This document shows positions 31,145 through 41,366 of a stretch of DNA of 50,003 nucleotides, one piece after another. The translations under genes were made by a program, and so were the position numbers. Position 1 is the first letter of the stretch, and every line of letters starts with the position of its first letter. The notes beneath the pieces were generated by a model. It was given only the letters and a program-made list of their open reading frames with translations. It was not told the DNA's origin and searched no databases. The DNA comes from Candidatus Omnitrophota bacterium (GTDB lineage Bacteria > Omnitrophota > Gorgyraeia > Aquiviventales > Aquiviventaceae). The stretch spans positions 1 through 50,003 of the forward strand of contig JAHFGY010000004.1 of assembly GCA_023247195.1 (NCBI GenBank), given 5' to 3'.

Positions 31145-31173
31145 ATTCTAGCAGAGGCTTCCAGGAGTGTCAA
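31145..31173 (-). promoter_or_regulatory. Near-consensus sigma70 promoter positioned for a leaderless transcript of the DHS-like/heptose/Kdo operon
   Basis: The minus strand reads TTGACA (31173..31168), a 17-nt spacer, TAGAAT (31150..31145), then TTGCC and the GTG start codon (31139). Confidence 0.45.
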
Positions 31174-31229
31174 TTACACACTCGACGTGCCTGAAAGCGC
31201 TCCCTCCGCCTGACTTATATGGTATATTT

Positions 31230-31235
31230 TATAAT
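31230..31235 (+). promoter_or_regulatory. Candidate -10 box (TATAAT) for the giant-gene leader
   Basis: A perfect TATAAT lies in the AT-rich tract 31211..31247. I found no convincing -35 at 16-18 nt (the nearest TGACTT-like hexamer is too close). Confidence 0.3.
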
Positions 31236-31247
31236 CAATATGTAAGT

Positions 31248-31391
31248 ACCGCCAAAGGCAAACCTGCGGTAACGCAGGGACGTCCCGCAAGCTTTGCTTC
31301 GCAAAGCGGGCTCGCGGGACCCCGCACGAAACTTCGCGCGGTGAAGTCGCGGGGCAAAGCTTCGGATCCCTTCTATTCTATAGGGACTGCC
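31248..31391 (+). ncRNA. Structured 5' leader / candidate riboswitch (GEMM-I-like 5' half)
   Basis: AAAGGCAAACC (31254..31264) is followed by the hairpin CCUGCG-GUAA-CGCAGG (31263..31278) and then GACG. A long hairpin follows: GUCCCGC(31282-88)/GCGGGAC(31314-20), enclosing GCUUUGC-uuc-GCAAAGC (31291..31307). A further hairpin is CCCCGC(31320-25)/GCGGGG(31349-54), enclosing ACUUC/GAAGU. The CGCAAAGC octamer is at 31300..31307 and a second GCAAAGC at 31354..31360. Confidence 0.45.
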
Positions 31392-31419
31392 AGGCTGCCG
31401 AAAAACCGGCAGCCTTTTT
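31392..31419 (+). terminator. Intrinsic terminator-like hairpin 8 nt upstream of the giant-gene ATG (candidate attenuator / expression platform)
   Basis: AGGCUGCCG-aaaaac-CGGCAGCCU (a 9-bp GC-rich stem) followed by UUUU. The U-run is present only on the plus strand. No plus-strand gene lies upstream that it could terminate. Confidence 0.6.
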
Positions 31420-31427
31420 CCTATAAG

Positions 31428-31541
31428 ATGCTAACGACCTATCGAAGAACAGAATTCAGAAAATTTCTCAGCGTTGTCTTAGCGGGCGTCGTTGCGCTTT
31501 CCAACACGCCGCTTCTCCTCGCTGCGCCTTCATCCAGCAGC
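31428..31541 (+). other. Predicted N-terminal signal peptide or membrane anchor of the giant protein
   Basis: A basic n-region (RRTEFRK), a ~22-aa hydrophobic core (FLSVVLAGVVALSNTPLLLAA), then a Ser/Pro-rich stretch. Confidence 0.55.
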
Positions 31542-34500
31542 AGTCTGCTTGCGCCCAGTCCAGCCAGCCAACTGCCGGGCCTTGAGGTCGCTTCCCTGCT
31601 CGATGAATTAGACACCGCCTACGGTTTCCCGCAATACCAACTCACCAGCGATATCACGAGCAAGAAAACGACGCTGGCATTGCAATTCGATGCTAAAGGC
31701 CTTGCGGCTTTTCAGCAAAACTCCCGAGAGTCTACCGGCGCCCACCTAGGTCTGACCGCCCTTGTACTAGGCTTGGCGCGACAGTATGCCTGGCAGAATC
31801 ACGCGTTTGACGAAGTTATTCGGACGTACGCGCAGGATCGGCAAATGACCGCAGCGGAGACGCAACAACTGCTGGCGAACGAAGACATCCTGAGGCTTGT
31901 GCTCACACCCAATGCGTATCTGGAAATCCTCCAACAGGCTGTGGTGGATTCGGGTTTGTTTCAATGCATAGTAGCCGCTCCAGACGACACTCCACATGAC
32001 CAACTCACCGCTCTCCGTCGGACCCTCGCCGACGATCTGCGCGCTTTTTTTCCCGGCGCGACGGTGTCCGATAACTGGTATCGATTCGCCCCATCGCCGA
32101 ACAGGTCAACGGAAAATGAGCCGGCGATGCGATGGTCCGGTCGAGGACTCTCTCCCAAACAGCATGAGATCGTTGATACCGTCATTGGCGACTATTTTTC
32201 AGGCGAGCAGCCCGGCCCCCTAGCCACAGAGCTTGATCAACAATCTTACGAATACAGCTACCTGGATCCGGACGGAATACTTGCAGATGCCGGCGTGCGT
32301 ATTTTATTTCTTGAAGGCCTTCTGGAGCGCATCCGTGAGGCTTGCGAGGCGGAGGGAGAAGAATTTCCTGAAGACCTGGCCATTCACCCGGCCCGCCAAC
32401 ACCGGACGCTGCTGCTGGACCCGACTCAGCATGAAGCCATTGCAAGACAGCCTATTGAATGGCGCGGCCGGCTGGCCCGTCATGAGCTGGCGCACATTGA
32501 GCATCCGGAGCTGACCGAAGAGCAAATTCAAGCGGTAGCGGAATGGGCAATCGGAGAAACCGATCCCAATGCATCGATGAGCGCGGTGGAAATAAGCCGG
32601 TCAGAGGACTTTGCCGCCGCGATGCGGGGCGTACCGGGAGGCAGCTATTCAAATAGTCAGCTGGCGGCTGCAGCCGGAATCGCTCGAGGAACTTATTCGC
32701 GGGTGCTTGCTTCGGAAAAAATCCGCCGCATTCATCAGGAAAACGAGCGCCGCAAGCGCGAGCAAACCGGGCTCGCTCCAATTATTCTCATCGACGTAAG
32801 CAATGAAGAGCTCCGAGAACAAACGCTGCGGGCGATCGACGAGCACGTGTCCGATATTCCGCCCGGGGATCACTTTCTGACAGACCTAAGCTCGTACCTT
32901 CATATCACCGCCATGACGATACATAAGCACGAGGCTTATATTCTCGCAAAAATCGCGGAATTGAACGCGCAGAAGAAATTACGGGACGAGCCCACGATAA
33001 ACATTATTTCACGGGGCGTGGTATGGAGAGTTCAACAAGCGCTCCCTACGACGAAAGGTGGCTCCTACTATTGGACGCAGCTTGCTGATCTTTGGGGCAT
33101 CGGCTGGGTAAGCCTCCAGAACCATTTGAAAGAAATTGAAGATTTGCTGGCCGTTGAAAATGAGCGGCGGAAGGAGGATCCGAAGGCAGTTCCCATTGAA
33201 ATTTTAAAGGCACCTGCCGCGGGCAGCGTATTGCAGAGTTTTGCAGAGGGATTACCGAACGTGGATCCTGGGATTTACTCGTTGGGGCGGTTGGCCGAAT
33301 TGGCGGGCTCTAGCTACGAGGTGATTTACCAATATCGAGATGAAGCCGCCGAACTTGTTTCCGCCGAGAATATTCGCCGAAGCGGACTTGTCACCCCCAT
33401 ACGCCCTATTGAAATCCGAGAGCTCGGCGATATCTTGCCTCGTATCGCGGCAGCGCTTCCCGGCATCGCACCGGGTTCCTACAGCCTGACCGCCTTCGCA
33501 CAAGCGGTAGGCGTGAGCCAAACATCGATCACGACCAACCTCACCGAAGTACAGAATTTGCTCGCTGCCCACAATCACGCTCGATCCAGTGCGGCAATAT
33601 TCCTGGAATCTCCCGTGATTTTTGAGCGGCTTTTGCACGATTATGCACCGGCCTTGCAGGAAGGCTTGCTTAATGAGGATTGGCTGCGGCGAGCGTTCTC
33701 TGCCGGCCCTGCCGGCGTATCCGAGCTGCTGAGCGAGCTCACGGACAGCGGCACGGCGTCCTTATGCCGAGTGCTGGTTCTCGTTGAATTGTACCCCTTC
33801 CTATTTGAGCGGCTATACGTGGACATGGATGACACCCTCTTCACCTCTCCGCTATTCGTCGGCAGCGAAGCATGGATACGGAGCGAATACGCCCTGCATG
33901 GGCGGCCAATCAGCCATCTGAAGAATGAAAAACGGCGAATCGAAGGATGGTTGATCCACTCCGGCGTTCCGTTTCAGGCCGTTGAGCCTCTTGTGCCGGA
34001 AAAACTCCTGCAAATCCAGCAGCGCTACCCGCACATTCAGATCATTGGCCTGACGGCGCGGGGCCAAGAAGACAGGTCAAATACGGAGTCGATTCTCAAG
34101 CAATTGGGACTGAGCATCGAGATTTTATACGGCGGGTCAAGCTACGGCAAGCGCCAGCAATGGAATCAAGCACGTACGGCGGCCGGAAGGCTGCAGACAA
34201 GCGGCACCGCAAATGCGCAACCCGAATCAGAGTCAGACGAAACCGACTCCGACGAAGACCAAAGCGCGGCGCAACCGGAAGACACTACCAGCGGCCAAAA
34301 CGAGCAGGCGCGCCGATGGTGGGTGCTCCTCGATGACGGCCTGGACAGGCTGGCGAAAAAACCTCAGCGAGAGAGCTGGCTTGATGAGCAGATCGCTGCG
34401 GTGGGATACGCCCCTCCCATTCGTTATGACTGGAGCGCCTCTCGAGACCACATGCTTCAAGACCTCGAATCGGGCGACCTCATCTCCAGTTGGCGCTGGG

Positions 34501-37500
34501 CCATGGACGCTCTGGCGCTCCTCAAATATGAACCGGATACCCGCAGGCGCCTGGAAACGCTCGCTCAAATTCAGGCGCTGGTCGTTGAACCGGCCTTTGC
34601 CAGAATGCAGGCCGAGCAACCCCACCCCGATGAGGTCGAAGGCATCGACCGCTTGCTCGTTGGTTATGTCGAAGCGGTAACCGCGCTGCTCGCGCAAGGG
34701 CCCGCCGAGTTGGCTGAAACAGTCGGCATCGATTGGACGGAATATGTCGCCTATAGCGCCTTTCTTATCCTGATGCCGAATAACGCGGAAGATTTCACGA
34801 ACGCCTACATGAACGGGCTTCTTCCAATCCGCGAAGTTAGCCGCCAGAGCCGCGGGCTTCCGGAAGCAAACTACTTTATTGAGATGACGCCAGAGAACAT
34901 TTTCCTCTTCATGGAACCGCTGATCCGCTACCTGCGGACGGAGAAGCCGAGCCTCGTGGTACTCCCGGACACCGGCGCCCGCCCTTTTTTCGACCTGCTC
35001 AATAAGGTGATTGAAGCTGAGGGGCTCCCGACAAAATTGCTGATTTTTCCGATAAGCCGGAACACGGCCAGCGACACTCTCTATGAGCTCAAGCTTTGGA
35101 TGACCAGCCAGCAAACCCGCTTCACAAGATTATTCCAAGGCATCGATCCTTCGGGTGTGGCCGGAAAGGATGTCGTGATCTTGGATGACAACATTACTTC
35201 AGGCGAGACGATTCTCATGCTCCAAACGCTTCTTAAGGACGTGTGGGGTGCAGGGACGATCGTAGGACTCACGCCGTTTGCGTACAGGCGAGGTTACCCC
35301 TTCCCGTTTATCGCCACATGCGTCTTGCCGGCTCAAGGTTTTGCATGGAGGCGCCAAAACCCGCCCGTCGTGGTGATCACACCCTGGGAGAATTCCCCCA
35401 CGTTGCGCGGTGCGGCCAGCCGCTCGCGATTTGAACGGCCGCCCGTCAAGCTAATACAAAGCCCGAAAAACCAAGCCGCGGCCATTGAGCGTTTGCAACA
35501 ATTTATGGGGGCGTACGGGGCCTCGAATAGGGATTTGACACTGACGCTCAAAGAGACGGCGGAAGAGCCTTTCCCCTTTATGGAAATCGCTGGCTCTTCT
35601 CAGAGCGCGGAGCCGTCTCCGTCGGAAGCGGAAAGATCGGAATCGATCGTGGCTATCCCTATCTCCAACTCCGTGGAACTTCGTGAGCTTGGACGCCGGC
35701 TCCCCGGATGGGTTCGCACGGAGTATGCGCTCACAAAGGAAGAGTTGCCGCATGCCACGGAACCCGGAACCATGCTCTACGAGATCTGGGACAAACAAAC
35801 GGATGAGCCGCTCGGATTGTGCATTCTCCTATGGGTCTGGGATGAGAATAATAACCGCAATATCCTGATCCGGAAAATTCAGCCCCGGATAGATGCCGAT
35901 GATCGAGTGGATCCGGTCCAGCTCATCGAAGGCATCCGCAACTGGCTAGAGACCGAACCCATCGACCTGCACGCGCTCCTGATCGATGCGAACAGCATCA
36001 CAATGACCCGGGTCTCGGAGTCGCACCGGGTCCGGGCGCTGATCAATGACGCCTATGCCTCGCATCCCAGGGTGCGCGACCAATTGACAACCCAGGGCTA
36101 TGCGCATCCGTGGATAGGCCAAGCCAATGTTGTTTTCATAAAACGGCTCACGCCAGAAGAAAGAGCGCGGATAGCCGAAGGAAGGGCGCTGCTTGAAAAT
36201 ATCAGCCAATCGCGCTTGAACCGCATTCTTCACCCTGATTTGCTGTCGCAATTCAATGATGCGTCCATCCTTTTGAATAGCGGGCTTCCTCCCAGCGAGG
36301 AGGACCTTGCCCTTCTGCGCGTCTTGCAAAGGCATGACGCGCTGTTGCGATACGCGGCTTCCGCAGAAGCCAAGCGTAATCCTGAACAACTGGAACGATA
36401 CGGCACACGCATTCTTTATGACTCGCTTGTCGAGGCTTCAGAGCTTTCCGGCGAGCGCTTGAGCTTTCCGGAAGGCTTTTTTGAAGGGGATTACGGGCGG
36501 GTTCGAGCGGAGGAAGCATTCCTGTACTACATCCAAAATATTTGGGAGGACGGGTACCACCTCGGCCAATTGCGAACCGCGGATTTGCGCCAATACGGGC
36601 TGGGTCCCGCCCTACGGCTCCATTTCAATAATGACCGCGGAGCTCTGATCGAGTTTCTCTGCCCGGGAGGTTACGTCCAATCCGGAAAAAACCGGTACCG
36701 CCCAAATCCTGAACAAGAGGTGACATCCAGGATGTGGGCGCACTTCATGGCGGGCGAATGGTGGACGATCGCTCCCGGAGCGCGGTATACGCTCAAGGCA
36801 AATGACAAAGCGGGCGATCGCTATCGAGGCCTGGTAGCTTCATTCGAGGTGAACGCGAATCATGGGCCGATCGCGATCCTGCGGGATGTGGCCGGCGTTG
36901 AACACGCTATAGCGCATCAAGTTGACCAAAGTCACGTGGCTTCCACCTCGGTTCGTCTTGCGAAATATCGGCTATTCAAACGAAAATCCACCGCGGGACC
37001 GCTATTAGCCGCACTCAATATCCACCGTTGGCTGGCGGGCCACCACATCCAGGTTTCCGCGGAAATGCAGCCCGTCACAATGCCCTCTCAGCAGGTGAAC
37101 CAACTCATGAGGTGGCGATCCGTCAAGGGCGTCAATAAACTCTATAATCCCGCCGTTAGTCTGGTGCCCGAGCAAGATCCAGCCTTGGGAACGGTTTTGA
37201 GAATTTATGCGCCTCAGCCCGGTAAGGAACTTGCCGAAGCAGACTTGGTCGGTATCTGTTTCCGCGACTCGAATGGAGTGATCATCTATGAAACCCTCGC
37301 GGAACAACTGGGGGCGGTTGATATCGACGCCTGGATTCGCGGGCTACCTGTCACTCCCCTGGCGCGCAGCGGCAATTTCTTTCGACTGAGCCAAACCGGT
37401 CAACTACTCGCTCAGCTTCCGGGGAATCGGAAAAGCCGTCCGGTTTCCGTGGATAGCAGCTATGCCAATCAAATCGTTTTTGCCCGCCTTGAAAATCATG

Positions 37501-40500
37501 CGGCCTACGGAACCCTTTTAGCCGTCTATCCTGTTGATCCAACAACGGGGATAGTGCAGAGCAACCAAAGGATCCGTGCCTACGCCTGGGTTGAGGATGA
37601 GCTGCGGGCATTGGCCGGAGGGATTGTTCCATACGAAGAACAGTTTCCTACCCCCTCACCGGAGTTCTCATCGGATGAGGCTCAGTCAAAAGAAGGGGAT
37701 CACCCCGATGAAGCAGTCTCGCTTCCTGAGCCGCGGGAGGGAGACGCGGTCCGCGCAGAGCGAGGAGGTGTTTGGAGAAACACGACTATTCTTCGCATTG
37801 TCCCGGGGAAGTATATATTTGTTTCATGGAGAAATGTCGAACTCGGCATACCGTGGGAGAAAATTCAAACCCATCTTCAAAGAGCGGACGGAAGCCCGCT
37901 TATGCAATCTGAGGAAAGCAGTCCCGAGACGGATTCGGCCGCATCGGCTCCTCCGGAAGAAACACTGCTCCTTTCCCAGGTTGCTTTTAGCGATTCATCC
38001 ACCGGAGAAAAAATCGTATCTCTCCTTGCTGATAAGGACATCCGGACAGTCGCGGATCTTCTCGCCCGCGGGGCCGATCCGTTTATTGCCGTTGATGATG
38101 GCTATGCTCTTAACCGGGATGATTGGCAGGAATTGGACCTCGCCCTGGGCTTGCTCGGCGCTCCGATCCTTATGGATCCCGCAGCCACGGCCGATTCAGA
38201 TTCAACCGAGTCTCTTCCCATCCAGGGGCCCCTGCGCAAGTCGCGCGTGATTTACGGACTTTGGAGGCTGCATATTCTCAGCCTGTCCGAACTGGCACAC
38301 CGATTCGATAGGGCGCGCCCTGCCCTGGCCGCATCCCTCAGCCCCGATGAACTGCTCCGCGTTGAAGATTGGCTAACAGAACAAGGCTACGCAATCGTCT
38401 CTGAGCCAGTTGAACCGGCATATCTGCCAAGCCACCAGACATTCTCCACAAGCCGGATCAGAAGAATGATTCAAGCCATTCTGCCTGATTTTCCAGGCGG
38501 CGAATTCACTTACAAGGAATTCTCGGAATTGACGGGGATTGATCCCGCAACGATCAGCACTAACCGCGTCCTTATCGACCAATTGGTCGCCGCAGAAAAT
38601 GCGATCCGTGAGCGAGCCAGCCGGCAAACCATCCGCTTGGGAGAAGATATCCTGCAAAAGATTGAGGGTTTATTGCCTGAGACCCCCGGAGGGGAATATA
38701 CGCTGAAGGACTTGGGCGGGCTGTGGGGGCTATCGCCCCCGACGCTGGCGAAATACAGAGAAGAAATAGACTTGCTGGTGGAACAAGAGAACAACGACCC
38801 CGGAAGAGAAAGCCCCGAGGATGAGATCCAACTCTATGAGCCAGACCCTCTTGTCCGTATTGCGGCGGCATTCAAAGAAGTCCGGGGAGGAACGTACTCG
38901 GCCGAAAAACTGGCAAGAGCCCTTCATACCGCCTTACCAACCTTCAACAAATATGAGGCTGAAATTCTGGCTTTACTCGAGAAAGAGAATGAGTCGCTGA
39001 AGACCCAGGGAAAGCCACAAATTGAATATCGCCCCCGAGCTGTTCTCAAAAGAATCCGGGCTGACTTGCCGAACCTGCCCGGGGGCAACTACTCCATCAA
39101 GAGCTTCTCGGAGGCCATGGTGATAACAAGATCGAGCGTGCCAAAATTTGAGCCTGAAATCCAAGCGATGATCATAGAAGTGAACGCCTTGCGAAAAGAA
39201 CAACAGCGCACAGACTTTATCCACTTATCGGCGCAACCCGCGGTGAATACGTCAGAAATTCTATTCGACGAAATTATACAGAGAATTTCTACAATTCCCG
39301 CCGGCGAATATACCTGGTCAGGTCTTGCTAGGGAATTGAAGGCGGGCAAGGGCTATGTTATTGGAAAACAGAAAAAACTGACGACTGTTATAGCTGCTGA
39401 TAATGTTGCCCGCGAGAAACGCAACGAGGGCCCTATCGTGATAATCGCTCCTGATCGCATGGAGGACCTTGCGGCACGATTACCAAAGGTGCAGGGTAAG
39501 GTATACCAAATGAAGGATTTCGCGGAAGCGGTGGGCATTTCTCAAAGCGTGCTCAATAGGCACAGCACCGAAGTCGATGCGCTCCTGCTCACTGACAACA
39601 TCCGGCGTAAAGCAGCAAACGAGCCGGAAATCGCCCTCTGGGAGCAGGATTCTTTTTTGAAAATCGAGCAGCTAATCCCCTCCCTTGCGGGCGGCTGGTA
39701 CTCATTTGATGATCTAGCGGAACTCGTCCATGCGCATCGAAAAACGCTTGCCAGTTATGCGGATGAGATTGAACGTCTCATGGGTGCCGAGAATCTGAAG
39801 CGTCGCCAAGCCGGGCGCAAGGATTTTATTTTCTTGTTACGAAAACCTGTTTTACCGCGTGTGAGGCAAGTTCTTCCTTGGCTGGACGGAGGGACTTATT
39901 CGTGGGAAGACCTGGCGGCCGCCACAGGGCTGGAAGCCAAGACTCTTTCATATAATTACCGCGACGCAGTCTTGGAGATCATTGCGGCTGAGAATCTGAA
40001 CCGGTCACCGGATAATCAGATCATTTTGCTATCGAAGCAATCTCCTTCTTCCCAAGCGCTCGCGGGACGATTCGACGGAGCCGACCTACGCCAGGCGGAG
40101 CCGATCGAAGACGCTGAAACAACCCAGCTTATCGATGCGGCCGGCGTTATTTCAGAGAACTTCAAAGACGTGCTTGGCGGGGTCGAAGCCGAGCTCCCGG
40201 CGCTCCAGCAGCAGACGGATCAGCAAGAGGAGCCTCTCTCCGGAAAGAAAAAGCTGACGTTTAAGCTCGTGGCTTTCCGGAATGCGGCAGGCGAGATTGA
40301 GGCCCGCGGACCTTACATCCAGCGCACCGGTTCGGTGATCTACTTGAACGCCGGGCGCGCTGACCTGAGCGTAGAAAACAAGCGGAGAGCGCTGAAGCAC
40401 GACATCATCGGTCATGACTGGCAGCTCTTAATGGATACTTTGGGCTACGCATCTCCGGAGAAAATTCCGCATGCCATTGCCGAGGCGTTCGGCCTCTATA

Positions 40501-41366
40501 TGGGCGAGTTTTCGGATATATCTGATACCGAGGAGCGCATTGAACTCGTGCTAGCCATTCTGGAGCAGAGGCTGGGGATGGTTATCCCTGTGAATGGAGA
40601 ACCGGCGTCAATGACAGCCGCTCCTTCTCAGGCTGACTTCTGTCCCTCGCTGCTGCATTCGAGAAACCCCACCCGCGCCCTGCCCCGCCATGAAATTGCG
40701 GATGCGCTTCGGAAGCTGCCCGATATCCAGACTTTGTACATTGAACATGCCAACCCGATTACAGCGACGAGCATCCGGAACAAACTTTTGAACACTGGCT
40801 TAACGCATATCCGGCAGCTGGAAGAGCTGACACCGGAAGAACTCAATGCCCTACTGGGTCGCAGGGCGGATGAAGCTGCAGTGATGGCTATTGAAGCGGC
40901 TCTGCAAAGGCTCGGCAAATCACTCAGCGCCTTCGACTCTATCGACACGTTGAAAATTCCCGGGACCTCGGACCGTCAGCGCACGCGTCTGCTAATCATT
41001 CTCAAATCAAATGGCATCCTGACGATTCCCAAGCTGCTGGAAACGCCCGACGCCAAATTGGAAGGTATTCTTGCGGGGGCTTCAATGATCGGTGAAACAC
41101 CGATTAACTATCTGATGCTGCGGATCCGAGAGCTTAGGGATGCCACCCCGATGAAACCTTCATCCACGCAAGCGGCGATGATTCATGTGGGTGTGAACGC
41201 GACCGGGATACCTTCCTTCAGCGCTGAAGGGCAGTCGGAACTGGATCAACTGCTTGCGCAGATGTGCAGCAGCTTGAACAACACCATGGAAAATCCGACA
41301 GAAGACCTGGAACTGCTGATCAAGAACTGGCAAAGGCAGCGCGAAGAAATCGAATCAAGCGGCTAG
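31428..41366 (+). CDS. Giant (~3,312 aa) mosaic protein of unknown function with signal peptide/anchor, HExxH motif, 13 HTH-like repeats, HAD-like, PRTase-like and alphaCTD-like HhH modules
   Basis: An uninterrupted ORF is open from 31167. I chose the ATG at 31428 because it is followed directly by a signal-peptide-like sequence (MLTTYRRTEFRKFLSVVLAGVVALSNTPLLLAAPSSSS). The region upstream contains promoter elements and RNA hairpins. No Shine-Dalgarno is evident, so the start is uncertain. The stop TAG is at 41364..41366. Confidence 0.85.
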   Translation: MLTTYRRTEFRKFLSVVLAGVVALSNTPLLLAAPSSSSSLLAPSPASQLPGLEVASLLDELDTAYGFPQYQLTSDITSKKTTLALQFDAKGLAAFQQNSRESTGAHLGLTALVLGLARQYAWQNHAFDEVIRTYAQDRQMTAAETQQLLANEDILRLVLTPNAYLEILQQAVVDSGLFQCIVAAPDDTPHDQLTALRRTLADDLRAFFPGATVSDNWYRFAPSPNRSTENEPAMRWSGRGLSPKQHEIVDTVIGDYFSGEQPGPLATELDQQSYEYSYLDPDGILADAGVRILFLEGLLERIREACEAEGEEFPEDLAIHPARQHRTLLLDPTQHEAIARQPIEWRGRLARHELAHIEHPELTEEQIQAVAEWAIGETDPNASMSAVEISRSEDFAAAMRGVPGGSYSNSQLAAAAGIARGTYSRVLASEKIRRIHQENERRKREQTGLAPIILIDVSNEELREQTLRAIDEHVSDIPPGDHFLTDLSSYLHITAMTIHKHEAYILAKIAELNAQKKLRDEPTINIISRGVVWRVQQALPTTKGGSYYWTQLADLWGIGWVSLQNHLKEIEDLLAVENERRKEDPKAVPIEILKAPAAGSVLQSFAEGLPNVDPGIYSLGRLAELAGSSYEVIYQYRDEAAELVSAENIRRSGLVTPIRPIEIRELGDILPRIAAALPGIAPGSYSLTAFAQAVGVSQTSITTNLTEVQNLLAAHNHARSSAAIFLESPVIFERLLHDYAPALQEGLLNEDWLRRAFSAGPAGVSELLSELTDSGTASLCRVLVLVELYPFLFERLYVDMDDTLFTSPLFVGSEAWIRSEYALHGRPISHLKNEKRRIEGWLIHSGVPFQAVEPLVPEKLLQIQQRYPHIQIIGLTARGQEDRSNTESILKQLGLSIEILYGGSSYGKRQQWNQARTAAGRLQTSGTANAQPESESDETDSDEDQSAAQPEDTTSGQNEQARRWWVLLDDGLDRLAKKPQRESWLDEQIAAVGYAPPIRYDWSASRDHMLQDLESGDLISSWRWAMDALALLKYEPDTRRRLETLAQIQALVVEPAFARMQAEQPHPDEVEGIDRLLVGYVEAVTALLAQGPAELAETVGIDWTEYVAYSAFLILMPNNAEDFTNAYMNGLLPIREVSRQSRGLPEANYFIEMTPENIFLFMEPLIRYLRTEKPSLVVLPDTGARPFFDLLNKVIEAEGLPTKLLIFPISRNTASDTLYELKLWMTSQQTRFTRLFQGIDPSGVAGKDVVILDDNITSGETILMLQTLLKDVWGAGTIVGLTPFAYRRGYPFPFIATCVLPAQGFAWRRQNPPVVVITPWENSPTLRGAASRSRFERPPVKLIQSPKNQAAAIERLQQFMGAYGASNRDLTLTLKETAEEPFPFMEIAGSSQSAEPSPSEAERSESIVAIPISNSVELRELGRRLPGWVRTEYALTKEELPHATEPGTMLYEIWDKQTDEPLGLCILLWVWDENNNRNILIRKIQPRIDADDRVDPVQLIEGIRNWLETEPIDLHALLIDANSITMTRVSESHRVRALINDAYASHPRVRDQLTTQGYAHPWIGQANVVFIKRLTPEERARIAEGRALLENISQSRLNRILHPDLLSQFNDASILLNSGLPPSEEDLALLRVLQRHDALLRYAASAEAKRNPEQLERYGTRILYDSLVEASELSGERLSFPEGFFEGDYGRVRAEEAFLYYIQNIWEDGYHLGQLRTADLRQYGLGPALRLHFNNDRGALIEFLCPGGYVQSGKNRYRPNPEQEVTSRMWAHFMAGEWWTIAPGARYTLKANDKAGDRYRGLVASFEVNANHGPIAILRDVAGVEHAIAHQVDQSHVASTSVRLAKYRLFKRKSTAGPLLAALNIHRWLAGHHIQVSAEMQPVTMPSQQVNQLMRWRSVKGVNKLYNPAVSLVPEQDPALGTVLRIYAPQPGKELAEADLVGICFRDSNGVIIYETLAEQLGAVDIDAWIRGLPVTPLARSGNFFRLSQTGQLLAQLPGNRKSRPVSVDSSYANQIVFARLENHAAYGTLLAVYPVDPTTGIVQSNQRIRAYAWVEDELRALAGGIVPYEEQFPTPSPEFSSDEAQSKEGDHPDEAVSLPEPREGDAVRAERGGVWRNTTILRIVPGKYIFVSWRNVELGIPWEKIQTHLQRADGSPLMQSEESSPETDSAASAPPEETLLLSQVAFSDSSTGEKIVSLLADKDIRTVADLLARGADPFIAVDDGYALNRDDWQELDLALGLLGAPILMDPAATADSDSTESLPIQGPLRKSRVIYGLWRLHILSLSELAHRFDRARPALAASLSPDELLRVEDWLTEQGYAIVSEPVEPAYLPSHQTFSTSRIRRMIQAILPDFPGGEFTYKEFSELTGIDPATISTNRVLIDQLVAAENAIRERASRQTIRLGEDILQKIEGLLPETPGGEYTLKDLGGLWGLSPPTLAKYREEIDLLVEQENNDPGRESPEDEIQLYEPDPLVRIAAAFKEVRGGTYSAEKLARALHTALPTFNKYEAEILALLEKENESLKTQGKPQIEYRPRAVLKRIRADLPNLPGGNYSIKSFSEAMVITRSSVPKFEPEIQAMIIEVNALRKEQQRTDFIHLSAQPAVNTSEILFDEIIQRISTIPAGEYTWSGLARELKAGKGYVIGKQKKLTTVIAADNVAREKRNEGPIVIIAPDRMEDLAARLPKVQGKVYQMKDFAEAVGISQSVLNRHSTEVDALLLTDNIRRKAANEPEIALWEQDSFLKIEQLIPSLAGGWYSFDDLAELVHAHRKTLASYADEIERLMGAENLKRRQAGRKDFIFLLRKPVLPRVRQVLPWLDGGTYSWEDLAAATGLEAKTLSYNYRDAVLEIIAAENLNRSPDNQIILLSKQSPSSQALAGRFDGADLRQAEPIEDAETTQLIDAAGVISENFKDVLGGVEAELPALQQQTDQQEEPLSGKKKLTFKLVAFRNAAGEIEARGPYIQRTGSVIYLNAGRADLSVENKRRALKHDIIGHDWQLLMDTLGYASPEKIPHAIAEAFGLYMGEFSDISDTEERIELVLAILEQRLGMVIPVNGEPASMTAAPSQADFCPSLLHSRNPTRALPRHEIADALRKLPDIQTLYIEHANPITATSIRNKLLNTGLTHIRQLEELTPEELNALLGRRADEAAVMAIEAALQRLGKSLSAFDSIDTLKIPGTSDRQRTRLLIILKSNGILTIPKLLETPDAKLEGILAGASMIGETPINYLMLRIRELRDATPMKPSSTQAAMIHVGVNATGIPSFSAEGQSELDQLLAQMCSSLNNTMENPTEDLELLIKNWQRQREEIESSG
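32481..32495 (+). other. HExxH motif (HELAH) within the giant protein
   Basis: The context is WRGRLARHELAHIEHPELTEEQ (ORF aa 439-443). This is a bare motif with no recognised surrounding peptidase fold. Confidence 0.3.
32610..33611 (+). repeat. Array 1: five tandem ~65-aa HTH-like protein repeats (R1-R5)
   Basis: The units contain GVPGGSYSNSQLAAAAGIARGTYSRVL..IHQENERRK; IPPGDHFLTDLSSYLHITAMTIHKHEAYILAKIAELNAQKK; TKGGSYYWTQLADLWGIGWVSLQNHLKEIEDLLAVENERRK; VDPGIYSLGRLAELAGSSYEVIYQYRDEAAELVSAENIRR; and IAPGSYSLTAFAQAVGVSQTSITTNLTEVQNLLAAHNHAR. Confidence 0.8.
33804..34361 (+). other. HAD-superfamily-like module in the giant protein
   Basis: Motif I is YVDMDDTLF (DxDxT, aa 886-890). Motif II is IIGLTARG. 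A Lys is present in YGKRQ. Motif IV-like is WWVLLDDGLD. An acidic Ser/Asp/Glu linker (ESESDETDSDEDQ) is inserted before motif IV. Confidence 0.55.
34950..35291 (+). other. Type-I phosphoribosyltransferase-like module in the giant protein
   Basis: A canonical PRPP-binding loop, GKDVVILDDNITSGETILML (aa 1333-1352, nt 35172..35210 for VVILDDNITSGET), is preceded by LVVLPDTGARPFFDLL (PPi-loop-like). Confidence 0.6.
37983..38402 (+). other. Two RpoA-alphaCTD-like helix-hairpin-helix modules (central)
   Basis: STGEKIVSLLADKDIRTVADLLARG...DDWQELDLALGLLG and SRVIYGLWRLHILSLSELAHRF...LSPDELLRVEDWLTEQGY follow the pattern x-R-x-x-N-x-L-x-x-x-x-I-x-T-hxxL...eL..h...G..s..ei...L...Gh. Confidence 0.4.
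38451..40037 (+). repeat. Array 2: eight tandem ~65-aa HTH-like protein repeats (R6-R13)
   Basis: For example LPDFPGGEFTYKEFSELTGIDPATISTNRVLIDQLVAAENAIRE; LPETPGGEYTLKDLGGLWGLSPPTLAKYREEIDLLVEQEN; EVRGGTYSAEKLARALHTALPTFNKYEAEILALLEKENE; LPNLPGGNYSIKSFSEAMVITRSSVPKFEPEIQAMIIEVNALRK; IPAGEYTWSGLARELKAGKGYVIGKQKKLTTVIAADNVAREKR; VQGKVYQMKDFAEAVGISQSVLNRHSTEVDALLLTDNIRRK; LAGGWYSFDDLAELVHAHRKTLASYADEIERLMGAENLKRR; and LDGGTYSWEDLAAATGLEAKTLSYNYRDAVLEIIAAENLNR. Confidence 0.85.
40674..41141 (+). other. Two RpoA-alphaCTD-like helix-hairpin-helix modules (C-terminal)
   Basis: ITATSIRNKLLNTGLTHIRQLEELTPEELNALLGRRADEAAVMAIEAALQRLGKSL closely parallels the alphaCTD pattern (..svRsaNcLk.agI.tigdLv.kteeeLl.i.nfGkkSl.EIkekL.elGlsL). 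A second copy is LKIPGTSDRQRTRLLIILKSNGILTIPKLLETPDAKLEGILAG. Confidence 0.55.

Follow-up and report, generated by a model that had tools for sequence, protein, structure and literature searches.

A recurrent pairing of HAD-superfamily and phosphoribosyltransferase-type domains in a giant, leader-bearing protein of Candidatus Omnitrophota and its relatives

The two characterised kinds of fusion of a haloacid dehalogenase (HAD)-superfamily hydrolase with a phosphoribosyltransferase (PRTase) come from very different biology, namely a phage-defence toxin and the ribofuranosylation of capsule and O-antigen. The toxin, ShosT of the ShosTA anti-phage toxin-antitoxin system (PDB 8ZVB/8ZVC), has an N-terminal domain likened to type III soluble pyrophosphatases and a C-terminal adenine phosphoribosyltransferase (APRT)-like PRTase that binds phosphoribosyl pyrophosphate (PRPP) and has a long flexible loop; its pyrophosphatase is proposed to drive transfer forward (PMC11961720). 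BT2127, a type III soluble pyrophosphatase, is a HAD-superfamily protein according to a reference cited in PMC11961720. In surface-glycan synthesis, the dual-domain PRP-gPRT ribofuranosyltransferases are PRPP-dependent (Kelly et al. 2022, as cited in PMC11127046), and the capsule polymerase Bcs3 of Haemophilus influenzae joins CrpP (HAD), a helical bundle and CriT, a PRTase-like domain with a helical insert that uses PRPP as donor (PMC10299916). The PRP-gPRT/CrpP-CriT reaction is sequential, in that ribose-5-phosphate is transferred first, followed by removal of the 5-phosphate (PMC10299916, PMC11127046). Giant multi-enzyme proteins of Omnitrophota have also been described, with HAD_2 listed among their domains and no mention of a PRTase or of a HAD-PRTase cassette (West-Roberts et al. 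2023, bioRxiv 10.1101/2023.11.21.568195). Here, we analysed a 50,003-nucleotide stretch of contig JAHFGY010000004.1 from a Candidatus Omnitrophota genome (GCA_023247195.1; assembly of 2.16 Mb, ~96% complete), hereafter the window, meaning the whole stretch, in which one giant gene encodes a HAD-superfamily module followed by a type-I PRTase module. Both folds, the coupling of HAD to PRTase and multi-enzyme giant proteins in Omnitrophota are already known. New is what appears, by sequence comparison, to be a third, sequence-distinct lineage of HAD-PRTase pairing, confined to leader-bearing large or giant proteins and lacking stand-alone relatives.

Residues are numbered throughout from the GTG at 31167, which opens the mechanically called open reading frame (ORF) of 3,399 codons (31167-41366). 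The gene and the features of its HAD-PRTase region are:

31428..41366, plus strand: giant gene, from the ORF list and its translation (3,312 codons from M88; 3,399 from the GTG)
33744..34391, plus strand: HAD-superfamily phosphohydrolase module, residues 860-1075, from Pfam, AlphaFold2, Foldseek and conservation
33822-33836, plus strand: HAD motif I, DMDDT, residues 886-890, from the sequence
34047-34061, plus strand: HAD motif II, GLTAR, residues 961-965, from the sequence
34149-34151, plus strand: HAD motif III, K995, from the sequence
about 34203-34301, plus strand: disordered acidic insert between HAD motifs III and IV, from the AlphaFold2 model
34326-34346, plus strand: HAD motif IV, LLDDGLD, residues 1054-1060 (LLDDG at 34326-34340), from the sequence
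34392..34853, plus strand: conserved HAD-PRTase linker of ~150 residues, residues 1076-1229, from phmmer
34854..35456, plus strand: divergent type-I PRTase module, residues 1230-1430, from profiles, AlphaFold2, Foldseek and conservation
34968-34988, plus strand: PPi-loop-like DTGARPF, residues 1268-1274, from the sequence
35172-35210, plus strand: PRPP loop VVILDDNITSGET, residues 1336-1348, from the sequence

Nucleotides 33744-35456 encode two real, selectively maintained enzyme-type domains. To collect relatives, residues 860-1400 were compared exhaustively, by phmmer, with 1.84 billion representative proteins. This returned 22 true family proteins, most of them large or giant and a few short or truncated; a further match, P0024, was dropped as low-complexity. 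All the motifs named in the original prediction (DMDDT, GLTAR, LLDDGLD, DTGARPF, VVILDDNITSGET and HELAH) lie where it had placed them. Short motifs alone prove little, because the D.D.[TV] pattern arises in 63% of shuffles of the giant protein. Placement by profile and fold searches, which the original prediction had named beforehand as one test of its calls, recovered both the HAD and the PRTase superfamilies.

For the HAD module, the isolated segment matched Pfam DUF2608 above its cut-off (26.5 versus 22.6 bits, E 5e-6) in an alignment covering only profile positions 23-127 of 244, and the same family was matched by 18/20 relatives' HAD segments when these were scanned singly (best E 2.6e-10). 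DUF2608 is, to our knowledge, a family without a known function, and one that we take to be a member of Pfam clan CL0137. Some relatives' segments also matched Hydrolase, HAD, NIF and, in four members, Acid_phosphat_B, and in the same Pfam scan HAD_SAK_2 was matched by two members and 5-nucleotidase by one. The AlphaFold2 model built on the family alignment (predicted local distance difference test, pLDDT, 84.5) placed DMDDT directly after a modelled strand and the motifs at C-terminal strand ends. When this model was compared with the PDB using Foldseek, the best 50 matches were all HAD-superfamily proteins (E 1.4e-3 or worse, template modelling (TM) score 0.3-0.4). The closest were plant vegetative storage protein and class-C acid phosphatase (4fyp, 7cle), and the 50 included phosphoserine phosphatase, MDP-1 (1u7p), the HAD domain of the Legionella effector Lem4 (6cgk) and Pnkp1. 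As judged from profiles and model together, the assignment of residues ~880-1065 to the HAD superfamily is secure. In common with DUF2608, the class-C/IIIB acid phosphatases, MDP-1 and the Lem4 HAD domain, the module retains motifs I-IV intact. Unlike them, it carries a disordered acidic insert between motifs III and IV; this insert, which the original prediction had described as preceding motif IV, is real, comprises ~45 residues and was modelled with pLDDT <50 over most of residues 1013-1045.

The PRPP-loop pattern, in turn, arises in just 0.6% of giant-protein shuffles. Against Pfam Pribosyltran, the window PRTase segment itself scored under the cut-off (22.9 versus 26.3 bits, E 6e-5); 8/16 relatives' PRTase segments matched the family at E<=0.01 (best E 2.4e-10), and P0018 passed the cut-off with 27.1 bits. 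All NCBIfam matches of the segment were to PRTase or PRPP-synthetase models, with APRT and PRPP synthetase models ranking above comF and GntX (TIGR00201, E 0.056). A family profile of the PRTase segment gave 98 matches in the PDB at E<=10, and among the 60 matches listed, all were PRTase-fold proteins. The AlphaFold2 model on the family alignment (pLDDT 83.9, predicted TM-score 0.83) placed VVILDDNITSGET at the end of a modelled strand with a helix next to it. Foldseek returned 125 PDB matches for this model at E<=1e-3, and the best 50 were all PRTase-fold, mostly purine, adenine and xanthine PRTases (best E 1.8e-6). On this combined profile and model evidence, the assignment of residues ~1240-1400 to the type-I PRTase superfamily is likewise secure. 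The best structural neighbours were type-I purine/adenine PRTases, including Pyrococcus purine PRTase (1vdm), human HGPRT and Thermus APRT (6fsp), at E 1.8e-6 to 1e-4 and with TM-scores of up to 0.68 on the target. Two elements are common to the module and these enzymes: the PRPP loop, [DE]-D-x-x-x-[ST]-G-x-T, and a loop following strand 1 that binds phosphate. It differs from them in its low identity (12-22%), in lacking a recognisable base-binding hood, in having invariant residues of its own (N1244, E1250, S1297, D1303, W1407 and E1408) and in occurring only inside very large proteins. A helical insert of 40-80 residues between strands 2 and 3 occupies the position of the flexible loop, and no hood-like region could be recognised. 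When GTDB species genomes were scanned with sequence patterns and a close PRTase alignment, the patterns were matched and zero relatives were confirmed.

Conservation was counted over 20 HAD and 16 PRTase segments, most pairs of which were 22-35% identical. The HAD residues D888, K995 (the 'conserved Lys' of the original prediction), D/E1056 and D/N1057 were retained in 20/20 segments, D886 in 19/20 and T963 in 18/20. Among the PRTase segments, D1268, R1272, D1340, D1341 and G1346 were retained in 16/16 and T1348 in 15/16. This pattern across homologues, which agrees with the calls in the second test set by the original prediction, argues for maintained catalytic or ligand-binding domains rather than relics, as had originally been proposed. 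It would be very surprising if the modules were structural remnants with neither role. Such decay could account for a PRTase segment that scores under the Pfam gathering score and for the 45-residue disordered insert that interrupts the HAD domain. However, proteins that share just 22-35% identity overall keep the catalytic positions invariant or nearly so, and the insert belongs to the variable stretch separating motifs III and IV, where lengths differ among relatives.

The two modules had been treated as independent of one another, a view that the family does not bear out. HAD is followed by PRTase, in the same order, in 17/22 family proteins; motif I and the PRPP loop were 392-480 residues apart in the measured pairs, with three more pairs detected by profile HMMs only. 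The linker is conserved in P0003 (E 8.5e-23) and P0004 (E 2.4e-6). HAD, linker and PRTase are one fixed cassette, not independent insertions. A whole-genome search found the full cassette in 4/401 genomes sampled across the Omnitrophota phylum, with one copy in the window genome. Another copy is embedded in a frame that stays open for 81,822 codons (locus L017, G292:C1:73000-92999) on a 268-kb contig, where a SNF2-type helicase is encoded ~1,400 residues downstream of the cassette; this HAD-PRTase ... SNF2 order recurs in P0018. When 5.8 billion proteins were searched with profiles of both modules, no stand-alone relatives were detected in the single-domain length range. The cassette is a rare, small family in large or giant proteins of Omnitrophota-type bacteria, and its surroundings vary: helix-turn-helix (HTH) repeats in the window protein and P0003, SNF2 helicases in P0018 and the G292 frame, a FAD-binding domain in P0020, and beta-rich repeats in P0004, P0006 and P0007. 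Separately, in the 964-residue P0021 this HAD module is fused to a region that contains the motif HGDLKLDN, looks protein-kinase-like by eye and matches no Pfam family at E<=1e-4.

In a first alternative reading, the HAD module would be a periplasmic or surface 5'-nucleotidase, or a non-specific acid phosphatase (class B/C-like), beside a non-catalytic PRTase-like module that binds the 5-phosphoribosyl part and presents or senses nucleotides. We consider such extracytoplasmic nucleotide scavenging unlikely. It would account for the vegetative storage protein and class-C acid phosphatase neighbours (4fyp, 7cle) and for the Acid_phosphat_B and 5-nucleotidase matches. It would also accord with an export-type leader (described below) and with Omnitrophota being described as ultra-small and host-dependent, and it needs no extracellular PRPP. 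However, pure binding leaves the invariant DD pair (metal- and ribose-binding), D1268 and R1272 unexplained, as are the fixed order and spacing of the domains; the Foldseek E values of the HAD model are moreover weak (1e-3 and worse), with HAD subfamilies not separated.

A link between the PRTase module and ComF-like DNA-uptake proteins, raised originally in support of a nucleic-acid theme, held at the superfamily level and failed as a specific affinity. The PRTase family profile aligned to five Omnitrophota ComF-type proteins in hhalign (96.5%) over 112 columns, including the long region from strand 2 to the PRPP loop. Single-sequence controls gave 66% for ComF, 75% for orotate phosphoribosyltransferase (OPRT) and 31% for APRT, all only over the PRPP loop, and so do not separate ComF from OPRT. 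CxxC pairs, of which the ComF-type ORFs of related genomes have 2-4, are absent in and before the PRTase module. Specific ComF affinity was rejected on the strength of these controls and the relationship kept at the superfamily level. As a side observation, the ComF-type gene of the window genome itself (G000:C159:9190-9339, L117) came out of the whole-genome search with one in-frame TGA and may be a pseudogene or reflect an assembly error.

These comparisons bear on a second alternative, that the cassette handles nucleic acids: the HAD module would be a polynucleotide 3'-phosphatase of the PNKP type and the PRTase-like module a ComFC-like domain handling single-stranded DNA, both cooperating with the HTH and helix-hairpin-helix (HhH) arrays of the giant protein (13 HTH repeats) and with the SNF2 helicases of relatives. 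The best PDB sequence match of the HAD profile is indeed the Pnkp1 phosphatase domain, but at a non-significant E of 0.031. HAD_SAK_2, which two members match, is known from RNA-repair proteins, and the small-protein matches in the phylum scan were ComF-type ORFs in 5/5 readable cases. The hhalign result over 112 columns points the same way; the controls, the missing zinc-finger cysteines and the higher-ranking APRT and PRPP synthetase models do not. Likewise, HTH repeats in the window protein and SNF2 helicases downstream of the cassette in relatives would suit this role, yet both are inconstant partners of the cassette. On balance, we judge it improbable.

As in ShosT, the cassette has a hydrolase domain upstream of a type-I PRTase in one polypeptide. 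The PADLOC ShosT model PDLC03962 (237 positions) matched the PRTase segment at E 1e-4, with segment residues 102-140 aligned to model positions 169-207; the HAD segment did not match this model, and no full-length ShosT match was found. Unlike ShosT, a small cytoplasmic toxin with a DprA-like antitoxin, the pair described here sits in a 3,300-residue leader-bearing protein, its halves separated by a linker of ~150 residues, and no antitoxin-like partner is evident. The resemblance to the PRP-gPRT/CrpP-CriT enzymes extends to the order of HAD, helical element and PRTase-like domain, to a helical insert between strands 2 and 3 of the transferase and to an association with surface-glycan gene clusters. 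In contrast to CriT, where the D/E pair is split, and to CrpP, which has only the first Asp of motif I, the cassette has a canonical DD pair and a full DxD; the known enzymes are also cytoplasmic, whereas the giant protein has a predicted export leader. Bcs3 and the Thermobacillus enzyme were absent from the complete PDB lists at E<=10 obtained with the HAD profile (27 matches) and the close PRTase profile (31 matches), and from the best 50 Foldseek matches of either model. Sequence tests for membership in the ShosT or PRP-gPRT/CrpP-CriT families failed.

Because the cassette has the same domain order as the known fusions, a conserved linker, a helical insert in the corresponding position and full catalytic residues, we tentatively read the HAD and PRTase modules as a coupled enzyme pair, giving this slightly less than an even chance. 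The function we infer for the cassette, and the coupling in particular, draws by analogy on these precedents together with the conserved residues. The PRTase module would bind Mg-PRPP or another 5-phosphoribosyl ligand through its DD...SGxT and DTGAR loops and pass the phosphoribosyl group to an acceptor. The HAD module, with Asp886 as nucleophile and Asp888 as general acid/base, assisted by Thr963, Lys995 and Asp1056/1057, would then hydrolyse a phosphate-bearing product, which could be the transferred ribose, losing its 5-phosphate, or the pyrophosphate set free, and would therefore make the transfer irreversible.

The start of the gene has two further features:

31248..31403, plus strand: leader RNA with a c-di-GMP-I-type riboswitch match, from Rfam RF03167 (c-di-GMP-I-GGC model; 31.5 bits versus a gathering score of 59, E 1.7e-5)
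31464..31520, plus strand: hydrophobic segment FLSVVLAGVVALSNTPLLL, residues 100-118, from a Kyte-Doolittle scan

The riboswitch-like match, which scores under the Rfam gathering score, falls within the first 87 codons of the mechanical ORF, and these probably form an untranslated leader. Because the match covers 31248-31403, translation probably starts at M88 (nucleotide 31428, the first ATG) rather than at the GTG at 31167. The only strongly hydrophobic segment of the giant protein is FLSVVLAGVVALSNTPLLL; because it follows a basic stretch (YRRTEFRK), the sequence that begins at M88 resembles a signal peptide of the Sec type or a signal anchor, and export is predicted. An export-type N-terminus was also present in most complete family members. 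The giant proteins of West-Roberts et al., from the same phylum, have many transmembrane regions, whereas the window protein has this one N-terminal hydrophobic segment.

The export-type leader, the 13 HTH repeats, the leader RNA resembling a cyclic di-GMP riboswitch and the proposed host dependence of Omnitrophota, for which a predatory lifestyle has also been proposed, are the grounds for the weakest step of the proposed mechanism. In this step, the giant protein, with its multiple domains, would be displayed at the surface or delivered, and its cassette would act where PRPP exists, for example in a target cell, or before export. The resemblance to multi-effector toxins suggested in the original prediction is plausible. 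The most far-reaching form of the proposal is that the cassette founds a family of coupled PRPP-dependent phosphoribosyltransferase/phosphatases, present only in exported large or giant proteins of host-dependent Omnitrophota. Acting outside the producer's cytoplasm, for instance in a prey or host cell, these would drain PRPP or modify a macromolecule, with c-di-GMP switching their expression on. The target may then be phosphoribosylated and subsequently dephosphorylated; examples would be DNA bound by the HTH/HhH arrays, or a glycan of the envelope. Taken as a whole, this extended form is doubtful.

Several observations weigh against a coupled, PRPP-dependent pair. PRPP is a cytoplasmic metabolite, whereas the N-terminal hydrophobic leader predicts export, and our confidence in the mechanism is limited for this reason. 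The hood is replaced by family-specific sequence, so that even PRPP binding is deduced from the loops, and PRPP might play no part in the work of the PRTase-like half. Neither the PDB profile lists nor the best 50 Foldseek matches provided a sequence link to CriT/gPRT or CrpP/PRP, and the match to the ShosT model is limited to the PRPP loop, with none for the HAD segment. Finally, the HAD model has its best structural neighbours among extracytoplasmic acid phosphatases of class C/IIIB, which a simple scavenging phosphatase would fit equally well.

The giant gene is the sole plus-strand gene of the window and lies inside a cluster for lipopolysaccharide (LPS), 3-deoxy-D-manno-octulosonic acid (Kdo) and heptose. 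Two minus-strand LPS operons flank it, one comprising a DS-like gene, a PfkB-type kinase, KdsB, PyrG and KdsD, and the other three GT9 heptosyltransferases together with GT4 enzymes. The GC content of the giant gene (0.53-0.58) is below that of its flanks (0.60-0.66). The window PyrG (CTP synthase) is 77% identical to PyrG of two Candidatus Omnitrophota metagenome-assembled genomes, and its four best matches are all from Omnitrophota; in the P0004 genome, PyrG is 65% identical. Among full-length relatives whose gene context could be used, the two closest are P0003 and P0004; like the giant gene, both are located in an LPS core/Kdo cluster. A collinear LPS/Kdo/heptose supercluster (window 24983-47637; L001; L002) hosts these three genes, the relatives being 28-38% identical overall. 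Insertion points and orientations differ within it: the window gene and P0003 lie between the DS-like gene and GT9, and P0004 lies between KdsD and LpxL. Some other family members were found outside LPS clusters. For P0006, P0007, P0008, P0012 and P0013, the contigs were short or the adjacent genes carried no annotation.

In the locus of the closest relative, the giant gene is overlapped at its start by a 494-residue leader-bearing gene (L001 983-2467). Homology of the latter to the N-terminal ~460 residues of P0006 (E 4e-15; motifs IQDAH ... GGFHT) identifies it as a fusion or fission partner. No gene of this type is found upstream of the window giant gene, and at least 8 paralogues (best E 2.4e-89) occur elsewhere in the same genome, on G000 contigs C214, C179, C107, C114, C106 and others.

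The genomic neighbourhood raises a third alternative, in which the cassette is a true PRPP-dependent ribofuranosyltransferase of the gPRT + PRP type that adds ribofuranose to the LPS core or another surface glycan. On this reading, the cassette's place in an LPS cluster would be accounted for: the window gene and P0003 are each flanked by the DS-like/Kdo operon on one side and the GT9 operon on the other, and P0004 occupies another position in the same supercluster; the domain order, with a helical element between the domains, is moreover that of CrpP-CriT. Even so, the known enzymes are cytoplasmic and the giant protein carries a predicted export leader, and neither Bcs3 nor the Thermobacillus enzyme shows sequence similarity to the cassette. 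The acidic pair that CriT splits over two loops is here an adjacent, canonical DD. The giant gene is also set apart from the LPS operons by its opposite strand, its lower GC and its own riboswitch-like leader, and other family members lie outside LPS clusters altogether. Modification of an envelope glycan by this route therefore seems to us quite improbable.

Beyond the cassette, three other parts of the giant protein were delimited:

32481-32495, plus strand: HELAH (HExxH), residues 439-443, from the sequence
33585..37616, plus strand: core common to P0004, residues ~807-2150, from BLASTP (E 2e-137 over residues 807-2149) and per-segment phmmer
35655..36173, plus strand: domain X, residues 1497-1669, from phmmer, following the cassette in 8 family members

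The core shared with P0004 consists, in order, of HAD, linker, PRTase, domain X, a helical region, domain Y and a beta-rich region. An alignment of domain X shows invariant W, G, K, Q, S, S, H and R, and the domain has no significant Pfam or PDB match; a GNAT-like reading was set aside for want of Pfam or PDB support. Domain X may be part of the same functional unit as the cassette. The HExxH, which had been suggested as a possible metallopeptidase motif, is expected in 9% of giant-protein shuffles, and its surroundings have no Pfam match (residues 88-511) and no PDB match by phmmer (residues 120-470). For these two reasons it is counted as no more than chance, and the reading as a zinc metallopeptidase was rejected as unsupported. 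The motif is retained in P0003 (KHELAHIEN), the sole homologue spanning the region, where H446 is not retained.

Two repeat features were seen in relatives. The C-terminal halves of P0004, P0006 and P0007 contain 6-10 copies of a tandem repeat of ~100 residues (GWLD..W..G ... NHG..L.W), to which only a degenerate stretch of the window protein aligns (37000-37616, residues ~1945-2150). The pattern R-[SA]-E-x-R occurs at domain junctions of P0004 (residues 100 and 2001), P0006 (residue 596) and P0012 (residues 532, 565, 1882 and 1932), far exceeding the expected 0.06-0.4 per protein; it occurs in neither the window protein nor P0003.

Two 'dark' segments of the largely unannotated giant proteins of Omnitrophota thus resolve into a recurrent and apparently catalytic unit that is small enough for direct testing. 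Should its function prove to be ordinary phosphatase scavenging, the value of the finding would be limited to better annotation. If the coupled reading is true, a third lineage, unrelated in sequence to the phage-defence toxin and the capsule and O-antigen ribofuranosyltransferases, would suggest that joining a HAD hydrolase to a PRTase is a general way to make phosphoribosyl transfer irreversible. The position of this lineage behind a predicted export signal, in a possibly predatory bacterium, would sharpen the question of how enzymes with cytoplasmic cofactors work in exported proteins of Omnitrophota.

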